64,000 bases of DNA from Escherichia coli (lineage in GTDB: Bacteria > Pseudomonadota > Gammaproteobacteria > Enterobacterales > Enterobacteriaceae): assembly GCF_003790525.1 (NCBI RefSeq), contig NZ_CP033635.1. The stretch is one strand, 5' to 3'. Below the pieces are notes generated by a model. It ran no database searches and was not told where the DNA came from. It was given only the letters and a program-made list of their open reading frames with translations. Every line of letters begins with the position of its first letter. Positions within the stretch are counted from its first letter, which is position 1. Below, piece after piece: positions 6,338 through 52,292 of this stretch. The translations under genes and the position numbers were made by a program.

Positions 6338-7763
6338 TAATGCCGATCAGTTAAGGATCAGTTGACCGATCCAGTGGCTGTGTAAGAATCCGGAAACGCT
6401 CACTTGTTTCCGGATTTTTTTATGCACATTGGACAGGCTCTTGATCTGGTATCCCGTTACGATTCTCTGCGTAACCCACTGACTTCTCTGGGGGATTACC
6501 TCGACCCCGAACTCATCTCTCGTTGCCTTGCCGAATCAGGTACTGTAACGCTACGCAAGCGCCGTCTTCCCCTCGAAATGATGGTCTGGTGTATTGTTGG
6601 CATGGCGCTTGAGCGTAAAGAACCTCTTCACCAGATTGTGAATCGCCTGGACATCATGCTGCCGGGCAATCGCCCCTTCGTTGCCCCCAGTGCCGTTATT
6701 CAGGCCCGCCAGCGCCTGGGAAGTGAGGCTGTCCGCCGCGTGTTCACGAAAACAGCGCAGCTCTGGCATAACGCCACGCCGCATCCGCACTGGTGCGGCC
6801 TGACCCTGCTGGCCATCGATGGTGTGTTCTGGCGCACACCGGATACACCAGAGAACGATGCAGCCTTCCCCCGCCAGACACATGCCGGGAACCCGGCGCT
6901 CTACCCGCAGGTCAAAATGGTCTGCCAGATGGAACTGACCAGCCATCTGCTGACGGCTGCAGCCTTCGGCACGATGAAGAACAGCGAAAATGAGCTTGCT
7001 GAGCAACTTATAGAACAAACCGGCGATAACACTCTGACGTTAATGGATAAAGGTTATTACTCACTGGGACTGTTAAATGCCTGGAGCCTGGCGGGAGAAC
7101 ACCGCCACTGGATGATACCTCTCAGAAAGGGAGCGCAATATGAAGAGATCAGAAAACTGGGTAAAGGCGATCATCTGGTGAAGCTGAAAACCAGCCCGCA
7201 GGCACGAAAAAAGTGGCCGGGACTGGGAAATGAAGTGACAGCCCGCCTGCTGACCGTGACGCGCAAAGGAAAAGTCTGCCATCTGCTGACGTCGATGACG
7301 GACGCCATGCGCTTCCCCGGAGGAGAAATGGCGGAACTGTACAGTCATCGCTGGGAAATCGAACTGGGATACAGGGAGATAAAACAGACGATGCAACTGA
7401 GCAGGCTGACGCTGAGAAGTAAAAAACCGGAGCTTGTGGAGCAAGAGCTGTGGGGTGTCTTACTGGCTTATAATCTGGTGAGATATCAGATGATTAAAAT
7501 GGCGGAACATCTGAAAGGTTACTGGCCGAATCAACTGAGTTTCTCAGAATCATGCGGAATGGTGATGAGAATGCTGATGACATTGCAGGGCGCTTCACCG
7601 GGACGTATACCGGAGCTGATGCGCGATCTTGCAAGTATGGGACAACTTGTGAAATTACCGACAAGAAGGGAAAGGGCCTTCCCGAGAGTGGTAAAGGAGA
7701 GGCCCTGGAAATACCCCACAGCCCCGAAAAAGAGCCAGTCAGTTGCTTAACTGACTGGCATTA
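6338..7763 (+). mobile_element. Insertion sequence IS4, complete copy (1426 bp)
   Basis: 18-bp terminal inverted repeats TAATGCCGATCAGTTAAG (6338-6355) and the reverse complement of CTTAACTGACTGGCATTA (7746-7763), one mismatch between them; single transposase ORF; flanked by a 12-bp direct repeat; length equals the known IS4 size. Confidence 0.9.
6422..7750 (+). CDS. insG: IS4 transposase (DDE family)
   Basis: 442-aa ORF from the ATG at 6422 ([19 protein letters not shown]...); the ORF track starts 18 bp earlier at a TTG. Confidence 0.9.
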
Positions 7764-10203: not shown

Positions 10204-11235
10204 TTAGTCGCTGGTTGCATGATGACTTGCCTCCAGCGACGGAGTTGACACTGAATGGCGACGTACCAGCGTCGGACTAAAGACATTAGTGATTTCCGGG
10301 AGAGGGCGATTATCCGCCAGCGCCAAAGCCAGTTCGGCAGCCTGCGTCGCCATCGTCACGATTGGGTAACGCACGGTGGTCAGACGCGGACGCACATAGC
10401 GTGACACCAGCACATCATCAAAGCCAATTAACGAAATCTCACCCGGTACATCAATACCATTATCATTGAGAACGCCCATCGCGCCCGCCGCCATTGAATC
10501 GTTATAACAGGCTACCGCAGTGAAATTTCTTCCTCGTCCCAAAAGCTCGGTCATTGCCTGTTCACCGCCGCTTTCGTCTGGTTCGCCAAATGTCACCAGC
10601 CGATCATTGGTCGGAATACCACTTTCAGCAAGGGCATCGTAATACCCTTGCAGACGATCTTCGGCGTCAGAAATAGAGTGGTTAGAGCACAGATAACCAA
10701 TGCGGGTATGACCTTGCTGAATTAAATGACGCGTTGCCAGCCAGGCACCGTAACGATCGTCCAGAGCAATACAACGGTTTTCAAAGCCAGGCAGGATACG
10801 GTTGATCAGCACCATACCGGGCATTTGTTTCATTAATGAGGCTAAATCGGCATCCGGGATCATTTTGGCATGGACAACCAGCGCAGCACAGCGATGGCGG
10901 ATCAGTTGCTCAATGGCCTGACGCTCTTTTTGTTCGTTGTGGTAACCGTTGCCAATCAATAAAAAATTACCAGTGTGATAAGCCACCTGTTCGACCGCTT
11001 TCACCATTGCACCGAAAAACGGATCGGAAACATCACCAACGACCAGACCGACCGTTTCAGTGGTCTGCTGCGCCAGCGCACGGGCGTTGGCGTTCGGGTG
11101 ATAGCTAAGAGACTCCATTGCACTATGCACAGCAAGCCGGGAAGCTTCGCTGGCTTTGGGTGAATTATTAATGACGCGGGAAACGGTGGCGACTGAAACG
11201 CCTGCCAGTCGGGCTACATCCTTTATGGTCGCCAT
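10204..11235 (-). CDS. galR: Galactose operon repressor (LacI family)
   Basis: 343-aa ORF MATIKDVARLAGVSVATVSRVIN... with LacI-type HTH. Confidence 0.9.
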   Translation of the reverse strand: MATIKDVARLAGVSVATVSRVINNSPKASEASRLAVHSAMESLSYHPNANARALAQQTTETVGLVVGDVSDPFFGAMVKAVEQVAYHTGNFLLIGNGYHNEQKERQAIEQLIRHRCAALVVHAKMIPDADLASLMKQMPGMVLINRILPGFENRCIALDDRYGAWLATRHLIQQGHTRIGYLCSNHSISDAEDRLQGYYDALAESGIPTNDRLVTFGEPDESGGEQAMTELLGRGRNFTAVACYNDSMAAGAMGVLNDNGIDVPGEISLIGFDDVLVSRYVRPRLTTVRYPIVTMATQAAELALALADNRPLPEITNVFSPTLVRRHSVSTPSLEASHHATSD

Positions 11236-11448
11236 GAAAATACCTTAGTGGGTAAACGCTTACATTCTTTCAGTGTTACGGAAAACGCCCGTTGGTTCAA
11301 GGGGGGGCGTGTTTTCATCGTGGGAATGTGAGCCAAACGCAAATAAGTAAGACAAAAAAAGAGATTGCAAACCTTTGGTTACACTTTGCGAAACGCTGTT
11401 GCGATTGACCGCTGGTGGCGTTTGGCTTCAGGTTGCTAAAGTGGTGAT

Positions 11449-11530
11449 CCCAGAGGTATTGATAGGTGAAGTCAACTTCGGGTTGAGCACATGAATTACA
11501 CCAGCCTGCGCAGATGCGCAGGTTTTTTTT
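11449..11530 (+). ncRNA. omrB: OmrB small RNA
   Basis: Starts CCCAGAGGTATTGATAGGTGAAGTC..., ends with GC-rich hairpin GCGCAGATGCGCAGG plus a T-run; shares 5' and 3' ends with the copy about 200 bp downstream; sits between galR and aas as in K-12. Confidence 0.85.
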
Positions 11531-11645
11531 TGCCGGTCATCAATCTGTAACAGTAACCGACAATTTACACACCTCGTTGCATTTCCCTTCATTCCTTTGC
11601 GTTTTCTCGCTGGCGAAGAGTCGTTGTGCAGACCACAATCAAGAT

Positions 11646-11733
11646 CCCAGAGGTATTGATTGGTGAGATTATTCGGTACGCTCTTCGTACCCTGTCTCTT
11701 GCACCAACCTGCGCGGATGCGCAGGTTTTTTTT
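11646..11733 (+). ncRNA. omrA: OmrA small RNA
   Basis: Starts CCCAGAGGTATTGATTGGTGAGATTATTCGG..., ends with hairpin GCGCGGATGCGCAGG plus a T-run; paralog of omrB. Confidence 0.85.
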
Positions 11734-11799
11734 CGCACCTAATTTACTGTCGCTCGCGTTCTTTATCTCGTGTAATCTCCCTCCATTCGCTTTTACTGA

Positions 11800-15166
<3,367 letters not shown>

Positions 15167-15204
15167 GCTTTCACCAGATGGCATATTCCGCCATCTGGTG
15201 AACG

Positions 15205-16860
15205 TCACATTCCCGAAGGGTGCATACCTTTCGGATACTTCACGCTGTATGAGAATGGCAGACTCACGTTCTCTTTACCTGACAGTTTCAGCGTCCAGGA
15301 CAGTTCACCCGTTTTCGCATCAAACTGCGCCTGACCATACTGCATTTTTTCCACCGTAATATCACTATTAGCACTGACTGGGATCTGGTCGAGCAGAGTG
15401 ATATCCACCGCGTCGCCGTAGCTGTTCTTTACATTAAGGGTGTAACTGAAGTTGCGCACCGCGCTGTCATTAAAGATAGATAACGCATTCTCTTTTTTGA
15501 GTACGGCTTTACGTTGAATAATCAGCTTGGGATCGCGGTTAAGCTGAATATCCAGCGACTTGCCATCTTCCGGCGGCTGCAAATAGCCCACGCCGGTACG
15601 ATTGTTACCAAAGAAGATCTGACTTTCGCCGGGGATTAAATTTAACTGTTCCCACTCTTTAATTTGCACCTGGAGATAAGCGTCATTACTGATCTTCGGA
15701 ATAGCAAAGAAGCGATATTCACCGCTGACCGATTCCTCCTTAATGACCACCGTGCGCGCGGTGTTGTCGCTGTCGATTTGCCACGGCAGCGAAAGCGCAT
15801 AGCGAACATTTTGCGCGGTGAAACTTTCTGGTCGCGCCGAAGCTGGTGCTGCCTGTGCGGCATACTTGCGCCCGGCTGGTCGCTCCCTTGATTTTTGCAT
15901 CTCTGCCTCCAGGGATTTCTGCAATTCTGATGCATCCTGGTCAGACGAATATTCCGAACGCTGTTTCATCACGGGTGTTGCTGAAAGCGAGCCGCTTACA
16001 CCACCATACTCAGTCACATCCACATACAGAGGTTCCAGGTGTGGCAGCGTGAGATGAGTATCAGGTTCACTGGTCGAGAGCACGAGATTAACGTTTTTCC
16101 ATGGCAACCCCGTATACTGGCGAATATTAGCCTTGTAAACCAGACGCAGCGGTTGGTTTATGCCCGTGGCGTGAATATCATAGATCGGCGTCCATGTAGC
16201 ATCAGGAGTTATATAATGCACCACCGCTTTCGCAGTGACGGCTTTTGGGACATATACCTTAGCGATGATAACCTGCGGATCATCGGATGCCTCTGAATCA
16301 CCGTTATTCATACTCTCGCGTTGCTCCAACTTTTCAATTCCAAGCTGGTTATCAGCAAGTTTCTGCGTCAACTCATTGTCAGCCCGTAATAACTCACCAT
16401 TTTTCTCTTTCACCATTTGCAGATACTTGCCAACTTCGGCGGCACTTTTATTGGTTAATGTGCTATTTGCCTCTAATACCTTAATTTGAGCCGCGATATT
16501 GTTTTTCTCGGCGGTCAGTTTTGCCTGTTCCACCTTTACTGCTTTTAACTGTTGCTGAGTATCTGACGGCAGCGCATTCGGCTGTGTTTCCATTAGCGCG
16601 ATACGTGAGGAAAGCACCGTCACTCCGTTATCGATAGAAATGGCGATGCTGTCGTCGGTTACCGAATTGGCGATATTAGTGAAAATAATTTCGCTTTCAC
16701 CTGCCGGTAAGTTGAGTGTCTCTTCACCTTGTAGGCTGGCACCATGCAGATAAACAGTGACGTCTTTGAGTGTTAGCGCTTGAGTTAACTGCGCCCCCCA
16801 GGCGGAGGACAGGCACCCGGTAAGCAACATGGCGAGGGGAATAGGTTTGAAAATCAACAT
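15205..16860 (-). CDS. Hypothetical secreted or lipo-protein with central coiled coil (DUF4139/DUF4140-like architecture, tentative); not recalled in K-12
   Basis: ORF track 15205..16875 (556 aa, TTG); likelier start is the ATG at 16858-16860 preceded by AAGGA (MLIFKPIPLAMLLTGCLSSAWGAQ...); N-terminal signal peptide with possible lipobox LTGC; heptad-like QQQLKAVKVEQAKLTAEKNNIAAQIKVLEAN...; domain assignment is from memory. Confidence 0.7.
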   Translation of the reverse strand: MLIFKPIPLAMLLTGCLSSAWGAQLTQALTLKDVTVYLHGASLQGEETLNLPAGESEIIFTNIANSVTDDSIAISIDNGVTVLSSRIALMETQPNALPSDTQQQLKAVKVEQAKLTAEKNNIAAQIKVLEANSTLTNKSAAEVGKYLQMVKEKNGELLRADNELTQKLADNQLGIEKLEQRESMNNGDSEASDDPQVIIAKVYVPKAVTAKAVVHYITPDATWTPIYDIHATGINQPLRLVYKANIRQYTGLPWKNVNLVLSTSEPDTHLTLPHLEPLYVDVTEYGGVSGSLSATPVMKQRSEYSSDQDASELQKSLEAEMQKSRERPAGRKYAAQAAPASARPESFTAQNVRYALSLPWQIDSDNTARTVVIKEESVSGEYRFFAIPKISNDAYLQVQIKEWEQLNLIPGESQIFFGNNRTGVGYLQPPEDGKSLDIQLNRDPKLIIQRKAVLKKENALSIFNDSAVRNFSYTLNVKNSYGDAVDITLLDQIPVSANSDITVEKMQYGQAQFDAKTGELSWTLKLSGKENVSLPFSYSVKYPKGMHPSGM

Positions 16861-16974
16861 GGTTATCCTTAACAATGGGCACAGACATTGAAACGCGCGC
16901 TGGCGTTGACCAAAAGAGTCTATTGCGCTTTGTCAGGAAAGATGCGGCGAAAAGTAGTGAATACATTCTGAAAA

Positions 16975-17011
16975 GTGGAGAAAAGAGACGCCTGGCGCAA
17001 AACACCAGGCG
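16975..17011 (-). terminator. Intrinsic terminator after tas
   Basis: On the minus strand: CGCCUGGUG-uuuug-CGCCAGGCG followed by UCUCUUUUCUCC, just downstream of the tas stop; implies the downstream unknown gene has its own promoter. Confidence 0.5.
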
Positions 17012-17017
17012 AAAGGA

Positions 17018-18058
17018 TCACGGTGCCGGATACGTATAAACCTGATGCACCGCTTCAATTTCAGCTAATACGTCTTCGCTTAACTCCAGATGCAAACTTT
17101 CGACGTTAGTTTTCAGCTGCTCCATCGTGGTTGCGCCCAGCAGAGTGCTGGCAACAAACGGTTGACGGCGTACAAAAGCGAGCGCCATCTGAGCAGGATC
17201 CAGGCCATGACGTCTGGCGATATCAACATACGCCGCGACGGCTTTTTGCGTTTGCTCACCGCTATAGCGGGTGAACCGACTAAAGAGCGTATTACGTGCG
17301 CCAGCGGGTTTTGCACCATTGAGATATTTCCCGGTCAGCGTGCCGAAACCCAGGCACGAATAGGCCAGCAGTTCGACCCCTTCATACTGACTGACTTCTG
17401 CCAGACCTACTTCAAAACTGCGGTTTAACAGACTGTAGGGATTTTGAATGGTGACAATACGCGGCAGATCGTGTTTGTCCGCCAGATGCAGGTAGCGCAT
17501 TACGCCAAATGCAGTTTCGTTCGACACGCCGATATAACGAATTTTTCCCGCGCGTTGGTACTCTGCCAGTGCGTCCAGTGTATCCAGCAGCGAAACCGCA
17601 GGCGCAGAATCTGTCCAGCTATAACCGAGTTTGCCGAAGCAGTTGGTTGGGCGCTGCGGCCAGTGCACCTGATAGAGATCGAGGTAATCAGTCTGCAGAC
17701 GCTTGAGGCTGTCATGCAGCGCTTCGCGGATATTCTTCCGATCCAGCGCCTGATCCGGGCGGATGCCTTTGTCATTATTGCGCGACGGTCCGCTCACTTT
17801 GGAGGCGATAATTAACTTTTCGCGGCTGCCATGTTTCGCCAGCCAGTTGCCGACGTAGGTTTCGGTTAGCCCTTGAGTTTCGGGGCGCGGAGGTACTGGG
17901 TACATTTCGGCAACGTCGATAAGGTTAATGCCCTGAGCGACGGCATAGTCGAGTTGTGCGTGGGCGTCGGCTTCGCTGTTCTGTTCACCAAACGTCATCG
18001 TGCCAAGCCCCAGCGTGCTGACTTCCAGCGAACTGTGGGGTATACGGTGATATTGCAT
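17018..18058 (-). CDS. tas: NADP(H)-dependent aldo-keto reductase
   Basis: 346-aa ORF MQYHRIPHSSLEVSTLGLGTMTFG...; matches K-12 Tas. Confidence 0.9.
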   Translation of the reverse strand: MQYHRIPHSSLEVSTLGLGTMTFGEQNSEADAHAQLDYAVAQGINLIDVAEMYPVPPRPETQGLTETYVGNWLAKHGSREKLIIASKVSGPSRNNDKGIRPDQALDRKNIREALHDSLKRLQTDYLDLYQVHWPQRPTNCFGKLGYSWTDSAPAVSLLDTLDALAEYQRAGKIRYIGVSNETAFGVMRYLHLADKHDLPRIVTIQNPYSLLNRSFEVGLAEVSQYEGVELLAYSCLGFGTLTGKYLNGAKPAGARNTLFSRFTRYSGEQTQKAVAAYVDIARRHGLDPAQMALAFVRRQPFVASTLLGATTMEQLKTNVESLHLELSEDVLAEIEAVHQVYTYPAP

Positions 18059-41899: not shown

Positions 41900-42070
41900 T
41901 GTTTTTATTTATTCAATGAATTTATATTTCGTTGAATAGATAACATTTACCTGAATATTAGACGCTGGTTTTGTGACTGATGTCGGATATTTGAATGTCG
42001 GCTTGAAAAATAAGCCGACCATCTCTTTAATTAAGCACAATTCCGTGTAATGTATACGCATTAGTTAATC

Positions 42071-42145
42071 ATCTTGTAACTGTTAAATCAGGCAAGGCAA
42101 TGTTTGAAGTAATCATTACTTCTGACGTGCCTTGCCTTTTTTTTT
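42071..42145 (+). promoter_or_regulatory. RAT-like element overlapping an intrinsic terminator in the leader of the islet antiterminator gene
   Basis: CTTGTAACTGTTAAATCAGGCAAGGC resembles BglG/SacY-type RAT sequences (TTGTTACTG...CAGGCAAAACC); it overlaps the 5' arm of an extended hairpin (GGCAAGGCA 42091-42099 / TGCCTTGCC 42128-42136, with inner GAAGTAAT/ATTACTTC pairing) followed by nine Ts; GGAG lies about 8 bp before the ATG at 42157. Confidence 0.55.
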
Positions 42146-42156
42146 GGAGCCATGAA

Positions 42157-42981
42157 ATGATCATCGAAAAAGTCATGAACAATAATTGTGTACAGGCATC
42201 GATGAATGGACAGGAGGTTATCATTTCTGGGCCTGGCGTCGGTTACAACAAAAAATATGGAATGTCGGTCCCTGAGCATCCGGCTAACCGGATTTTTTAT
42301 GTCAGAAATGAACAAAAAAATAAACTCTACAAATTGATTGAACATGTGGATATTGAGTATGTTTTTGTTGCCGAAAAAATAGTGCAATATGCGGAGAACA
42401 ATCTCGAAAAAAATCTCAATCCATCGCTACTATTGATTCTTGCTGATCACATTTCGAATGCAATATCCCGAGTCGCTTCAGGCATACAAATTAATAATGT
42501 TTTCCTTGATGAAATCAAAGCGTTGTACAAAGCAGAGTATGCGATAAGTCGCGATGCATTAACTATCATTAATGAGCAATTCAGCGTTCAACTTCCTGAT
42601 GATGAGATTGGTTTTATAGCATTGCATATTTTAAATAATTATGAAAATTCAGTTGATTATGAATCAGTACGGATTATTGAGTTGTCGCAAATAATCACGG
42701 GGCTTATTGAAGTTGTTTATAACAGAAAGGTGGACAGAAGTTCATTTAATTATTCCAGGTTCATGATACACCTTAAATATTTTTCAAGTCGCGTATTATG
42801 TAATGAAAAGATAAAACAAAAAGATATTGGTGACATCTATGAGCAGTTTCTTGAGAAAGACATCCTGTTACAGCGCGCAATTCATGAAATTGAACGGTAT
42901 CTGTATGCCACTTTTAAATATGAATTAATTTTAGAAGAAAAACTATATCTCTCAATTCGTACCAAAGTATTAATGGACTAA
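42157..42981 (+). CDS. BglG/LicT-family PRD-containing transcription antiterminator
   Basis: ORF track 42100..42981; start taken at the ATG at 42157; N-terminal CAT-like region (IEKVMNNNCVQASMNGQEVIISGPGVGY) and PRD regions with conserved His contexts (LPDDEIGFIALHIL, RFMIHLKYFSSRV) resembling BglG (LPKDEVGFIAMHL, RLVTHLKFLSWRI). Confidence 0.8.
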   Translation: MIIEKVMNNNCVQASMNGQEVIISGPGVGYNKKYGMSVPEHPANRIFYVRNEQKNKLYKLIEHVDIEYVFVAEKIVQYAENNLEKNLNPSLLLILADHISNAISRVASGIQINNVFLDEIKALYKAEYAISRDALTIINEQFSVQLPDDEIGFIALHILNNYENSVDYESVRIIELSQIITGLIEVVYNRKVDRSSFNYSRFMIHLKYFSSRVLCNEKIKQKDIGDIYEQFLEKDILLQRAIHEIERYLYATFKYELILEEKLYLSIRTKVLMD

Positions 42982-43012
42982 TTATATATAACATTTATAT
43001 GAGATAACCCAC

Positions 43013-44593
43013 ATGAAACAAAAGAAAGCCTGGAGTTTTTTTCAGAGCCTGGGAAAGGCATTCATGTATCCCATTGCTCTGCTAAGTGTATGTGGCATGA
43101 TGCTAGGGCTGGGAAGTGGTTTAGCCAGTGATGATATGGCAAAGTTAATTCCATTTCTGGCTATTCCAATAATTAAAACCATACTTGATTTCATTGTTAG
43201 TCTTGGTTTGTTTGCCTTTGTTAATTTACCTGTATTGTTTGCGATAGCGATTCCCTTAGGATTATTAAAAGATAAAGAGGATAAAGCCTATGGTGCTTTT
43301 TCTGGCTTAATTGGTTTTATGGCGATGCATCTGGGAACGAACTTTTATCTTAAACAGCACGACTTATTGGTCGCTGCTGACCAAATGTCGACACATGGGC
43401 AAACCATCATTCTGGGGATCCAGTCCTACAATACCAGCGTGTTAGGGGGAATTGTTGCTGGGTTATTAGTCGCCAGCATGTATAAAAAGATCGTTAATTT
43501 ACGCATTCCTGAATCATTAGGTTTTTATAGCGGCCCACGTCTGGTGCCTATCATTACACTGATTGTGATGAGTGGATTTGGTCTGATCATCCCTTTTATC
43601 TGGCCGCCGTTTTTCAATCTTTTCATGCTCATTGGCCACTGGATTTCAACTTCCGGTCCTGTTGGCTATTTTTTCTATGCAGTCGCCGAACGCGTGACGA
43701 TACCTTTTGGTTTAAATCACCTGGTGACGTCAGTTTTCCGCTTTACCCCCATCGGCGGATCGGCAGTGATCGGCGGCGAAGAGTATTATGGCACCCTGAA
43801 CATGTTTATGGCGTACGTCAAAGAGAATGCGGTCATTCCGCTGGATTTGGCGGGGAAAATGGAACAGGGCAAACTGATGATTCAGTATGGTCTGGCTGGT
43901 GCCGCGCTGGCGATGTATCGCACTGCTCATGCTCAAAACAGAAAAGCTATCAAAGCATTGCTTATTTCCGGGGTGCTTACAGTCATTATTGGCGGCGTCA
44001 GCGAACCGATTGAGTTTCTGTTCTTATTTGTCAGTCCACTGCTGTTTGTCTTCCATGCATTTATGAATGGATTCGCCAACATGGTCTTGCCATATATGGG
44101 CGTGAAGATGGGATTTACTGGCGATCTGATTCAATTTATTAGCTTTGGCGTATTGCGTGGCACAAGAACAGGTTGGCCAATAGCGGTGTGTGTCGAAGTG
44201 GCCTATTTCTTTATTTATTACTTTGTGTTCCGTTGGACTATTCTCAAATTTAACCTGATGACGGTAGGCCGTGAAGAGTCCAGTCCTGTCACGCTGAACG
44301 CTCATGAGGATACGGCTATAGCGGATATCCCAACTCCTGATAAATCAGAGCTGCAAGCGGCGGAGCAGATGGTTAAGGCACTTGGTGGTAAAGAGAATAT
44401 TAAGTCACTGGATAATTGCGTAACTCGTTTACGTTTAACAATCGCAGATATGGGATTGCTTGACGAGGCTGCAATAAAAAGAGCCGGCGGAATTGCGGTT
44501 GTTAAACTTGATCAAAATACCCTACAAGTCATTATCGGTACTAAAGTCATCGCCTTGCGTCGGGATATGGATAACTACATGGGGATATGCTGA
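43013..44593 (+). CDS. PTS glucose-family EIICB component, MalX-like
   Basis: 526-aa polytopic ORF with C-terminal EIIB motif NCVTRLR; collinear similarity to K-12 MalX (SYDLGKAFMYPIALLS vs FQQLGKTFMLPVALLS; EPIEFLFLFVSP vs EPLEFLFLFVAP). Confidence 0.85.
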   Translation: MKQKKAWSFFQSLGKAFMYPIALLSVCGMMLGLGSGLASDDMAKLIPFLAIPIIKTILDFIVSLGLFAFVNLPVLFAIAIPLGLLKDKEDKAYGAFSGLIGFMAMHLGTNFYLKQHDLLVAADQMSTHGQTIILGIQSYNTSVLGGIVAGLLVASMYKKIVNLRIPESLGFYSGPRLVPIITLIVMSGFGLIIPFIWPPFFNLFMLIGHWISTSGPVGYFFYAVAERVTIPFGLNHLVTSVFRFTPIGGSAVIGGEEYYGTLNMFMAYVKENAVIPLDLAGKMEQGKLMIQYGLAGAALAMYRTAHAQNRKAIKALLISGVLTVIIGGVSEPIEFLFLFVSPLLFVFHAFMNGFANMVLPYMGVKMGFTGDLIQFISFGVLRGTRTGWPIAVCVEVAYFFIYYFVFRWTILKFNLMTVGREESSPVTLNAHEDTAIADIPTPDKSELQAAEQMVKALGGKENIKSLDNCVTRLRLTIADMGLLDEAAIKRAGGIAVVKLDQNTLQVIIGTKVIALRRDMDNYMGIC

Positions 44594-45768
44594 TGGATGT
44601 TTTTAATACTCCTATTTCCCGCAAAGGAACATATTGTACCCAATGGGACTTTTGCGAGGACAGATTTGGTGTAAAAGATGTATTACCATTCTCTATTTCA
44701 GATATGGATCTTCCGATACCAGACGCTATCACCAGAGCATTAAAAAAACGTCTGGAACACCCGATTTTAGGGTACAGCCGTTGGCAGCATGATGACTATC
44801 TGAATGCGATAGTCAATTGGTATCATCAACAATATAAAACTGAAATCAAACCAGAATGGATCACCTATAGCCCAAGCGTGATGTACTCCATTGCTAAAGC
44901 AATAGAGTTATTGACATCGCATGGTGATAATATTCTCGTTTTTACACCTGTCTATAATGCATTTTTTGATATAATTAAACATAGCGAGAGAAATATTCTG
45001 ACAGCCTCTTTGATTATAAAAAATGAGGGGGGCTACGCTATCAATTGGCAAGATTTTGATCTTAAGATTCAAAGCGCAAAGATGGTGTTATTATGTAATC
45101 CTCATAACCCGACAGGAACAGTCTGGTCGGAAGAAGAACTGCATAAAATCGCTGCAAGCTGTACAAGGCATAATGTCTGGTTATGTTCAGATGAAATCCA
45201 TAGTGATTTTGTTTTTAATCGTAGCTTTACATCCGCGCTTAAAATAAAAAAAGAAAAAGTAGTAGTATTTAACTCGATATCGAAAACATTTAATGTTCCT
45301 GCACTAACAGGATCGTATATGATTTCAACTGACGATAATTTTAATCATAAGTTCAGAACGATATCGAGGTATCGCGATTTTGTAAACTCCCCATCAGTAC
45401 TGAATATAATTGCAACTATTATTGCCTATAACGAATGTGAGGGATGGTTAAAGTCATTAAAGGCACATATTGCCTCTAACATTCAATTCACCCAGCAGTA
45501 TCTGAACGAAAACACTCCAGAATTGATCGTAAGGCCAGCTGATGGTTGCTATTTTTCGTGGATAGATTGCTCTGCTATTGGTTATCCCTTTGATGAATTC
45601 TACAGTCGATTAATTCATGAAGGCAAAGTGGGCATTATGGCGGGGAATGTCTATGGAACGGAGGGGGAGGGCTACCTTCGTCTGAACCTGGCCTGCGGTC
45701 GAGAAAAATTATATATGGGGCTTACGCGTCTTGCGAGTGTAATTAAAAATATTAATCAAGGAAAATAA
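44587..45768 (+). CDS. PLP-dependent C-S lyase / aminotransferase class I-II, MalY-like
   Basis: 393-aa ORF overlapping the PTS stop; GTYCTQWDF vs MalY GTWCTQWDY; PLP-lysine context SISKTFNVPALTG vs MalY SGSKSFNIPALTG. Confidence 0.85.
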   Translation: MLMDVFNTPISRKGTYCTQWDFCEDRFGVKDVLPFSISDMDLPIPDAITRALKKRLEHPILGYSRWQHDDYLNAIVNWYHQQYKTEIKPEWITYSPSVMYSIAKAIELLTSHGDNILVFTPVYNAFFDIIKHSERNILTASLIIKNEGGYAINWQDFDLKIQSAKMVLLCNPHNPTGTVWSEEELHKIAASCTRHNVWLCSDEIHSDFVFNRSFTSALKIKKEKVVVFNSISKTFNVPALTGSYMISTDDNFNHKFRTISRYRDFVNSPSVLNIIATIIAYNECEGWLKSLKAHIASNIQFTQQYLNENTPELIVRPADGCYFSWIDCSAIGYPFDEFYSRLIHEGKVGIMAGNVYGTEGEGYLRLNLACGREKLYMGLTRLASVIKNINQGK

Positions 45769-45770
45769 AA

Positions 45771-46367
45771 ATGAACAGCACGGATCTTATCCATCTCATT
45801 AAACATTTTATGCGTAACGAACATAAAGCAGTTGAAGAAGTTATTGATTCCCCCCTTTCGGAGGTCGCAAATTTAATTAAAGTATTACAGTCTTGTCAGG
45901 GGAAAGTTGTTTTTATTGGTGTCGGTAAGTCCGGTATTATTGCCCGAAAACTCGCCGCAACATTTGCCAGCACTGGAACTCCCTCGTTTTTTGTTCACGG
46001 TACGGAAGCGGTACACGGCGACCTTGGAATGGTGGCGAAAGACGATGTTGTTATTCTTATTTCAAACAGTGGTGAGACGGCGGAAATCCTGGCGACACTG
46101 CCTAGTCTGAAAAAAATGGGTAATTATTTGATCTCTTTTACACGCAGTCATCACTCATCGCTTGCGATAAGTTGTGATTTATCCGTTGAAATTCCCGTAA
46201 AAAGTGAGGCGGATAATTTAGGTTTAGCGCCGTCATGCTCATCAACAGTCGTTCTGGTTGTTGGTGATGCGGTGGCGCTTGCGCTCTCCGAATTGAAAAA
46301 GTTTACTCGTGCTGATTTCGGCTTATATCATCCAGGAGGTGCGCTCGGTATTAAAGCAAACTCATAA
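45771..46367 (+). CDS. SIS-domain sugar-phosphate isomerase (KdsD/GutQ-like, no CBS domains)
   Basis: 198-aa ORF; GVGKSGIIARKLAATFASTGTPSFFVH and LISNSGETAEIL closely resemble the SIS core of arabinose-5-phosphate isomerases. Confidence 0.75.
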   Translation: MNSTDLIHLIKHFMRNEHKAVEEVIDSPLSEVANLIKVLQSCQGKVVFIGVGKSGIIARKLAATFASTGTPSFFVHGTEAVHGDLGMVAKDDVVILISNSGETAEILATLPSLKKMGNYLISFTRSHHSSLAISCDLSVEIPVKSEADNLGLAPSCSSTVVLVVGDAVALALSELKKFTRADFGLYHPGGALGIKANS

Positions 46368-46429
46368 TTTCAAAATATAAATACAGTAACCGGTCACGCC
46401 ATCTTTTGGGGTGGCGTTCTTTGAAGTGA

Positions 46430-47386
46430 GTGTCAGCTATGAAAAATGTTCTGGTCACCGTCCCCAGCTTTTCAGCACGCTGTGTTTCCGCCAGCAAGTT
46501 GCTAAGAGAGAATAATTTTAATCTTATTATTAAGAATAATGTGGAGCATCTGCTTAAATCAGAATCCACTGCATTACGAGAATCTATTTGCGCGGTCATC
46601 GCCGGAAAAGATTGTTATCAGGCGGACACGCTATCATTGCTGTCTGGTGTGAAAATAATATCGAGATTCGGGACGGGGATAGACAATATTGATCTTCGTG
46701 CGGCACAGCAATCCGGTATTGTTGTCAATAATGCGGTTGGGATTAATTCAAATGCGGTTGCGGAATTTATCATTGGACTTATCTTCGCGAGCATGAGAAA
46801 TATCCCCGGTAGCTATCATGCGATGCAAAATGGTTATTGGGGCGAGTCGCATGGCTGCGAGTTACAAGGTAAACGTATTGGCCTGCTTGGCTACGGCAAT
46901 ATTGGCAAAACACTGGCGAAAAGGTTATCTGGTTTTGATGTTGAGCTTTTAGCTTTTGACAAACAACCCGATTTCCAGGCCGCAGGCAAAGATGGAGTTC
47001 AGTTCGTATCAATTGAAGATATCTTTATGCAGTCTCATGTCATCATCGTTCTTTTGCCATTTTCTCCGGAGCTGGAGAACTTCATTAGTCATAAATATTT
47101 GTCGATGATGCGCAATGGTGCTCTGATCATCAACGCCGCAAGGGGAAAGTTGCTGGATGAGGGTGCTTTACTTCAGGTAATTGAAGAACGAAATGTTTTT
47201 GCAGCACTGGATGTGTTTAGCTCTGAACCGCTAGCGCAATTTAGCCCATTGCTACATGCCAAGAATATCATTACAACGCCGCATATTGCGGCCGCCACCG
47301 TTGAGTCATACCAGCAAACCGGGATATACGTTGCCCAGTCGATAATTGATTACTTCGCAGGAAGGGAGATAAAAAACGTGCTGTGA
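46430..47386 (+). CDS. D-isomer-specific 2-hydroxyacid dehydrogenase family protein (NAD-binding)
   Basis: 318-aa ORF with dinucleotide-binding motif GLLGYGNIGKTLAKRL and family-typical C-terminal TPHIAAAT. Confidence 0.75.
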   Translation: MSAMKNVLVTVPSFSARCVSASKLLRENNFNLIIKNNVEHLLKSESTALRESICAVIAGKDCYQADTLSLLSGVKIISRFGTGIDNIDLRAAQQSGIVVNNAVGINSNAVAEFIIGLIFASMRNIPGSYHAMQNGYWGESHGCELQGKRIGLLGYGNIGKTLAKRLSGFDVELLAFDKQPDFQAAGKDGVQFVSIEDIFMQSHVIIVLLPFSPELENFISHKYLSMMRNGALIINAARGKLLDEGALLQVIEERNVFAALDVFSSEPLAQFSPLLHAKNIITTPHIAAATVESYQQTGIYVAQSIIDYFAGREIKNVL

Positions 47387-47411
47387 GTTCAGCTAAGGAA
47401 TATTTCAGGTA

Positions 47412-47445
47412 CAAAAAAACCGCAATTTGTGAAACACATTGCGGT
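47412..47445 (-). terminator. Intrinsic terminator of the metZWV tRNA operon
   Basis: On the minus strand, hairpin ACCGCAAT/ATTGCGGT followed by a U-run, immediately 3' of the last tRNA copy. Confidence 0.5.
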
Positions 47446-47464
47446 TTATCAGCATCATAAGTGT

Positions 47465-47541
<77 letters not shown>

Positions 47542-47575
47542 TCACCGTACTGCTTTTACTTCATCAAATTTTGAT

Positions 47576-47652
<77 letters not shown>

Positions 47653-47685
47653 TCACCGTACTGCTTTACTTCATCAAATTTTAAT

Positions 47686-47762
<77 letters not shown>

Positions 47763-49068: not shown

Positions 49069-49144
49069 TGTGTTATTCTGTATACCGTTTTGACGGATAC
49101 GACAGGGTGAGGGATAACCTCGCCCTTTTTAATTCTGAGGTGCT

Positions 49145-52086: not shown

Positions 52087-52292
52087 AAAAAAAAGCACCG
52101 CAATTAGGCGGTGCTACATTAATCACTATGGACAGACAGGGTAAATGTACAGGAAGTGAAAAAAGGTAGCTTTGCTACCATGGTCTGAATCGCAGACCAA
52201 TTGCAAACACAACAACACAACATCACAACCGTAAGCCAAAAGTTCACCAGAACACGCATTCCGATAAAACTTTTCGTTCCGGCTCAGGAAGT
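52087..52292 (-). ncRNA. gcvB: GcvB small RNA
   Basis: Minus-strand sequence starts ACTTCCTGAGCCGGAACGAAAAGTTTTATCGGAATGCGTGTTCTGGTGAACTTTTGGCTTACGGTTGTGATGTTGTGTTGTTGTGTTTGC and ends in hairpin GCACCGCCTAATTGCGGTGC plus a U-run; divergent from gcvA. Confidence 0.85.

Follow-up and report, generated by a model that had tools for sequence, protein, structure and literature searches.

The interval at positions 11449 to 11733 of the window, by which we mean the whole 64-kb stretch of DNA that was analysed, almost certainly carries omrB and omrA, the paralogous trans-acting sRNA genes of Escherichia coli. The locus is the reference omrB-omrA pair itself, and as such is already known, well studied and ordinary. 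Two units were found on the plus strand, one of 82 nt (11449-11530) and one of 88 nt (11646-11733), with a start-to-start distance of 197 nt. Their 5' 15 nucleotides, CCCAGAGGTATTGAT, were identical and their first 21 nucleotides matched at 20 of 21 positions; the last ~38 nt of the two units shared 89% identity, and their middles were unrelated in sequence. This is the arrangement described in the first-pass annotation, which had reported same-strand units of ~82 and ~88 nt, about 200 bp apart, with a common 5' end, a 3' GC hairpin followed by a T-run and divergent middles, and each of these traits was seen.

The whole window was scanned on both strands with Rfam 15, in which the OmrA-B family (RF00079) has a gathering score of 40. 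The unit at 11646-11733 matched this family with 96.6 bits (E = 6.4e-18) and the unit at 11449-11530 with 86.1 bits (E = 2.3e-15), both over model positions 1-87 of 87, both on the plus strand, to which RF00079 matches were confined, and both at more than twice the gathering score. Judged by these E-values, the resemblance of the units is far beyond chance. The lack of an OmrA-B match had been named at the outset as the result that would count against the assignment, and both units instead matched the family model from end to end. Direct alignment further demonstrated that the 88-nt unit is K-12 omrA (b4444) and the 82-nt unit K-12 omrB (b4445), with 100% identity in each case, so that the order first proposed, OmrB then OmrA on the plus strand, was correct. 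In the annotation of K-12 MG1655 both genes are listed as ncRNAs, omrA (b4444, 88 nt) adjoining aas and omrB (b4445, 82 nt) adjoining galR. The gene order in the window is the same, the two units being in tandem and co-oriented with aas, with omrB beside galR and omrA beside aas, and the open reading frames on either side, together with their protein domains, likewise uphold the placement of the pair between galR and aas. The coordinates of all features of the locus are collected in Table 1.

Table 1. Features of the omrB-omrA locus and its neighbours, in window coordinates
Feature	Position	Strand	Basis and remarks
galR, divergent upstream neighbour	10204..11235	-	ORF; LacI, Peripla_BP_1 and Peripla_BP_3 Pfam domains; K-12 synteny
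omrB promoter region (-114 to -1)	11335..11448	+	putative -10 TAAAGT at 11437-11442; conserved block at ~11370-11406 with GTTACA
omrB (rygB), Hfq-dependent sRNA	11449..11530	+	RF00079, 86.1 bits; identity to b4445; T-run reaches 11531
OmrB 5' pairing (seed) region, CCCAGAGGTATTGATAGGTGA	11449..11469	+	20/21 match with OmrA; pairing role from PMC2588501
OmrB central hairpin, arms TCAAC / GTTGA, variable middle	11472..11486	+	fold; other species keep the hairpin with different arms
omrB intrinsic terminator, 9-bp hairpin (11503-11524) and 9-T run	11503..11531	+	terminator scan; fold; compensatory G-C to A-U change in relatives
omrA promoter region (-114 to -1)	11532..11645	+	putative -10 CACAAT at 11634-11639; C at -12 and -13
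omrA (rygA), Hfq-dependent sRNA	11646..11733	+	RF00079, 96.6 bits; identity to b4444
OmrA 5' pairing (seed) region, CCCAGAGGTATTGATTGGTGA	11646..11666	+	20/21 match with OmrB; pairing role from PMC2588501
78-codon open frame, TTG start, not a gene	11660..11896	+	ORF list; unconserved, unannotated, no Pfam match
OmrA central hairpin, arms GGTACG / CGTACC, variable middle	11675..11691	+	fold; four pairs with compensatory changes
omrA intrinsic terminator, 9-bp hairpin (11706-11727) and 8-T run	11706..11733	+	terminator scan; fold; covariation
Promoter-like block for aas, TGTCGC-N17-TGTAAT	11748..11776	+	conserved in 74 distinct enterobacterial spacers; putative function
aas ribosome-binding site AAGGGAG, 5 nt before the ATG at 11821	11809..11815	+	conserved in 74 distinct enterobacterial spacers
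aas, co-oriented downstream neighbour	11821..13980	+	ORF; acyltransferase and AMP-binding Pfam domains; K-12 synteny
lplT, after aas	13973..15166		

Comparison of the 585-nt galR-aas intergenic region with that of K-12 revealed three differences, none of which lies within the annotated RNAs. Position 11305, in the galR-omrB spacer, is G (T in K-12); the omrB T-run consists of nine T (11523-11531) rather than the eight of K-12; and position 11625, which corresponds to -21 of the omrA promoter, is T (C in K-12). No functional effect is expected of any of the three. Other than at these intergenic positions the locus is indistinguishable from K-12 omrA/omrB, with the same RNA sequences, order, strand relation, galR and aas flanks, three-helix architecture, seed and terminator. 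When a 531-nt query covering the locus (11300-11830) was searched against 5426 complete E. coli genomes, at least 80% of it was covered in 5405, and 5366 records matched at 99% identity or above.

Folding of the units recovered, in both, a G+C terminator hairpin with a U-tract, preceded by a GGUG/CACC helix and a central hairpin. T-runs follow the hairpins on the plus strand only, which fixes the orientation of both units. In sRNAs of this kind, the Hfq-binding 3' module usually takes the form of such a terminator hairpin and T-run. The 5' end typical of the family, CCCAGAGGUAUUGAU, which is its target-pairing region, is present at both 11449 and 11646, and nucleotides 1-15 of OmrA were mostly unpaired in the predicted fold (mean probability of being unpaired, 0.84). 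Identity with the reference genes, family, genomic context, terminators, conserved structure and the lack of a coding signal are matters of observation at this locus.

Promoter regions were placed by their spacing to the +1 position and by upstream conservation, the latter across 51 distinct omrB and 54 distinct omrA upstream sequences. A sigma-70 promoter scan of 11250-11900 returned nothing at threshold, as is expected because the promoters are activator-dependent. From the spacing to +1, the -10 hexamers would be TAAAGT for omrB and CACAAT for omrA, and these assignments agree with published accounts (PMC5175337, PMC12692685, PMC13425233). Upstream of omrA, conserved boxes were located at ~11546-11553 (TGTAACAG) and at ~11571-11613. 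The conserved upstream blocks differ between omrA and omrB, in agreement with a previous study, which described omrB-specific conserved boxes and found that omrB alone responds to overproduced RstA (PMC13425233). Templates extending from -114 to +50 have been demonstrated to be directly activated by phosphorylated OmpR in vitro (PMC5175337), and omrA is reviewed as sigma-S-dependent, with C at -12 and -13 (PMC12692685).

Expression, Hfq dependence, control by OmpR, sigma-S and RstA, and repression of targets are drawn from the literature, in which transcripts have already been detected for the identical K-12 sequences. According to these accounts omrB and omrA would be separate transcription units, each transcribed from its own promoter upon activation by phosphorylated OmpR, with additional input from sigma-S in the case of omrA and from overproduced RstA in the case of omrB, and each ending at its own intrinsic terminator. 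The RNAs would then bind Hfq, and their conserved, largely single-stranded 5' end would pair, over short stretches of complementarity, near the translation start of target mRNAs, namely ompT, cirA, fepA, fecA, ompR-envZ, csgD, flhDC, dgcM, flgM, btuB and others. Pairing would block translation and, for some targets, promote RNase E-dependent decay; repression of ompR would act as negative feedback on the synthesis of OmrA and OmrB, and the divergent centres would give each paralogue some targets of its own, such as btuB for OmrA. The description of the pair in the first-pass annotation, as OmpR-regulated sRNAs that repress outer-membrane protein mRNAs, is in keeping with this body of work (PMC2588501, PMC5175337, PMC12692685). 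Pairing of the 5' end with ompT, cirA and ompR was established with compensatory mutations, and the effects depended on Hfq and RNase E (PMC2588501), and the repression of ompR constitutes an autoregulatory loop (PMC2588501, PMC5175337). Later studies added csgD, flhDC, dgcM, flgM and btuB, as well as targets in carbon and lipid metabolism, some of them reached through the divergent central region (PMC6443205, PMC7549644, PMC11162775, bioRxiv 10.64898/2026.06.26.734639).

Duplexes were computed between the 21-nt seeds of the window and the K-12 initiation regions of ompR, cirA and ompT, with 2842 tiles of 90 nt from the window as background. Nucleotides 1-9 of the sRNAs were found to be complementary over 9 bp to ompR at -17 to -9 and to ompT at +13 to +21. 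The seed-target duplexes had energies of -13.6 to -19.3 kcal/mol, and the fraction of background tiles at least as stable was 0.03 for ompT, 0.13 for ompR and 0.50 for cirA. Pairings with all three targets do exist and fit the mechanism, but their energies are not exceptional against the 2842 tiles and were consequently dropped as independent support for it; this accords with the shortness of the pairings, which has been remarked upon in the literature.

The family was then surveyed in species-representative genomes scanned with the 21-nt 5' motif, which gave at least 120 loci, those listed all belonging to the Enterobacterales. Among the listed loci, under relaxed matching, 63 had two units in tandem, at a distance of 188-204 nt in most cases, and 57 had one, 40 of the latter with room for a second. 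Single-unit loci agree with the previous report of a single Omr gene in some species (PMC13425233, Fig. 1). The neighbouring aas gene lay downstream in 101 of the 107 listed loci with enough sequence to tell, and galR lay upstream in 67. Relative to the single-copy loci of other Enterobacterales (PMC13425233), the seed, terminator and aas synteny are as in the window, which differs in having two copies, as is usual in Escherichia, Citrobacter and related genera. One typical Omr unit was found at 10411-10503 of NZ_SZPQ01000016.1, a record labelled 'Martelella alba' BGMRC 2031, though that genus name is alphaproteobacterial; given the unit, the organism is probably a member of the Enterobacterales, and the name of the record looks taxonomically wrong.

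Across the listed loci, nucleotides 1-15, the GGUG/CACC helix and the terminator were near-invariant. Nucleotides 1-15 were identical in 183 of 183 units, a figure imposed by the search pattern for 170 of them; the other 13, second copies recovered under relaxed matching, are independent. In the same way, that the 5' 21-mer does not vary among relatives follows largely from the pattern used to find them. The search placed no demand on the 3' ~35 nt, and these were strongly conserved in the listed units; the middle was variable. Analysis of 46 aas-proximal units with RNAalifold recovered the Rfam architecture (GGUG/CACC helix, central hairpin and terminator), with compensatory changes in four pairs of the central hairpin and one terminator pair changed from G-C to A-U in 10 sequences. 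In the galR-proximal set, which occupies the OmrB position, the outer helix and terminator were recovered and the central hairpin was not, because MAFFT misaligns hairpins of variable length. When the sequences were folded individually, a central hairpin of at least 4 bp was present in 136 of the 147 distinct units from the listed loci, built from 75 different arm pairs, and the terminator hairpin abutted the T-run in all 147. Such a pattern of conservation would be expected if the sequence were a structured RNA whose seed is single-stranded, and not if it were coding or inert.

Other duplicated sets of Hfq-dependent sRNAs, enterobacterial or vibrio, are exemplified by Qrr1-4 and by the tandem PrrF1/PrrF2 of Pseudomonas. 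These too are paralogous, with a common seed, partly redundant targets and separate promoters for different inputs; they differ from OmrA and OmrB in belonging to unrelated sequence families with other regulators and targets, so that the analogy is a functional one only.

It is conceivable, if rather doubtful, that the tandem arrangement has effects beyond redundancy, with read-through from omrA into aas-lplT on the one hand and recombination between the terminator repeats, recurrently deleting omrA, on the other. For the first of these, the proposal would be that transcription running on past the omrA terminator contributes to the aas-lplT transcript and so couples OmpR and sigma-S to phospholipid turnover. 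The two genes share a strand, only 87 nt separate the omrA T-run from the aas ATG, the aas synteny recurs in the large majority of the listed loci (101 of 107), and Korepanov et al. (bioRxiv 10.64898/2026.06.26.734639) noted this synteny in the context of lipid-related targets. Set against this are the strength of the omrA terminator, with its 9 bp and eight T, and the contents of the spacer, where a promoter-like block and a ribosome-binding site of its own (Table 1) suggest that aas is transcribed independently. The block, TGTCGC-N17-TGTAAT, scored too low to be reported by the promoter scan; it is probably the promoter of aas. On balance, we consider a contribution of read-through to aas-lplT expression improbable. 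If it were true, a cis input from OmpR and sigma-S to aas-lplT would help to explain the near-universal synteny of omr and aas.

For the second, the loss of omrA could be followed in complete E. coli genomes, about 0.1-0.3% of which lack the gene. Sequence specific to omrB was present in 5423 of 5426 genomes, and sequence specific to omrA was at least 80% covered in 5405 and covered to any extent in 5416. Between 18 and 52 E. coli genomes have no contiguous pair, which may reflect omrA deletions, insertions or assembly errors. In NZ_OZ039818.1 (1082427-1087508) a 203-nt deletion, equivalent to window positions 11513-11715, has its ends in the two near-identical terminator repeats. The promoter and body of omrA are gone, and omrB alone remains beside aas; the deletion may be real or an assembly artefact. 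Natural E. coli may repeatedly lose omrA by recombination between the ~38-nt terminator repeats, with one case documented. Such a deletion yields the omrB-only state seen in other Enterobacterales, and the case of NZ_OZ039818.1 mirrors the cross-species rule by which the omrB promoter is always the one retained (PMC13425233). Copies of omrBA on plasmids were also considered and rejected: the only 'plasmid' matches were four PLSDB records (NZ_OL790696.1, NZ_CP134663.1, NZ_CP141089.1 and NZ_LN868944.1) of 0.7-4.9 Mb, which are mislabelled chromosomes or chromosome-sized replicons and not mobile copies.

The first-pass annotation had also drawn attention to a 78-aa open reading frame at 11660-11896, running across omrA, and had judged it non-coding. 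The frame is listed as described, and that judgement is sustained by its lack of Pfam matches, of CDS annotation and of conservation, and by its overlap with the omrA terminator and aas signals. From a TTG within the sRNA seed, it passes through the omrA terminator, the promoter-like block and the aas ribosome-binding site, then through 25 aas codons out of frame, extending 163 nt past the 3' end of OmrA (11733). A Pfam search of its translation returned no family at E-values up to 0.1, and neither K-12 nor any of the PGAP-annotated RefSeq records examined has a CDS at these positions. The evidence supports a chance frame that is not coding, and the conservation of the spacer is better explained by expression signals of aas than by coding. 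Nor did Pfam searches of the open reading frames at 11428-11592 (-), 11514-11666 (+), 11589-11738 (-) and 11660-11896 (+) yield a meaningful match, and a coding reading of the frames that cross the units on either strand was dropped for all four.

Were the 78-aa frame, or a shorter frame within OmrA, nonetheless a real small-protein gene, omrA would be a dual-function RNA. The frame does exist, and a GAGG (11650-11653) lies 6 nt upstream of its TTG start, but the GAGG and the TTG are conserved because they form part of the sRNA seed. Among the listed loci, frames opening at the same conserved TTG/GTG varied from 3 to 128 aa in 97 other species and reached 60 aa or more in only 10. In E. albertii, E. 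whittamii, Escherichia sp. E1V33 and C. amalonaticus the frame is interrupted by stop codons at about codon 48. Moreover, the transcript ends at 11733, and neither frame meets an in-frame stop within it, the stops lying at 11894-11896 and 11740-11742. Together with the absence of a protein family match or CDS annotation, and with the remainder of the frame overlapping the terminator, the promoter-like block and the out-of-frame start of aas, this makes a small-protein gene very unlikely, the absence of frame conservation largely refuting it.

Least credible of all, and negligible in our estimation, is the notion that the units are inert duplicated remnants, such as repeated terminators or REP-like elements, and not expressed genes, for whilst they are short, repeated, hairpin-ended and unannotated in the PGAP-annotated RefSeq records examined, both match a curated sRNA covariance model from end to end, their first 15 nt show no variation among Enterobacterales families and their middles drift with compensatory changes, conserved promoter boxes precede each of them, and the identical K-12 genes have been characterised experimentally (PMC2588501, PMC5175337).

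The window as a whole is collinear with K-12 2931038-2986395 in reverse orientation, and comparison of the two brought several further features to light. A ~1.4-kb segment at 6342-7763 is absent from K-12 and lies inside ygeA, at K-12 2980055-2980070, with ~16 bp present at either side; its 448-aa product is an IS4-family transposase (Nterm_IS4, DDE_Tnp_1), and the segment looks like an IS4 insertion disrupting ygeA. Between lplT and tas, a ~1.85-kb segment absent from K-12 (15167-17021) holds one open reading frame of 555 aa on the minus strand, with DUF4140 and DUF4139 domains. A third segment absent from K-12, of ~5.5 kb (41901-47463), is situated between amiC and the tRNA-fMet cluster and contains five co-oriented genes, encoding a BglG-type antiterminator (CAT_RBD, PRD), a PTS EIIC-EIIB permease, a class I/II aminotransferase, a SIS-domain protein and a D-2-hydroxyacid dehydrogenase. 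The segment is an islet for sugar utilisation that varies between strains and adjoins tRNA genes. Three tandem tRNA genes were found on the minus strand at 47468-47762, at the position of K-12 metZ-metW-metV (initiator tRNA-Met), and a full-length GcvB sRNA (RF00022, 199 bits) at 52087-52292 (-), at the position of K-12 gcvB. Conversely, the window lacks, at ~49104-49121, ~145 bp that K-12 has between tcdA and mltA (2945883-2946028) and that may be a REP-type element.

No feature was present under the omrB-omrA pair in the PGAP-annotated RefSeq E. coli records examined, and a track of open reading frames is therefore misleading at this locus. The locus matters mainly as a point of annotation, and nothing found here changes what is known of the system; recognising it as an sRNA locus prevents a false gene call from ORF-based tracks. 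The two RNAs that it encodes play a central part in the post-transcriptional control of envelope composition, iron uptake, motility and biofilm formation in enterobacteria.
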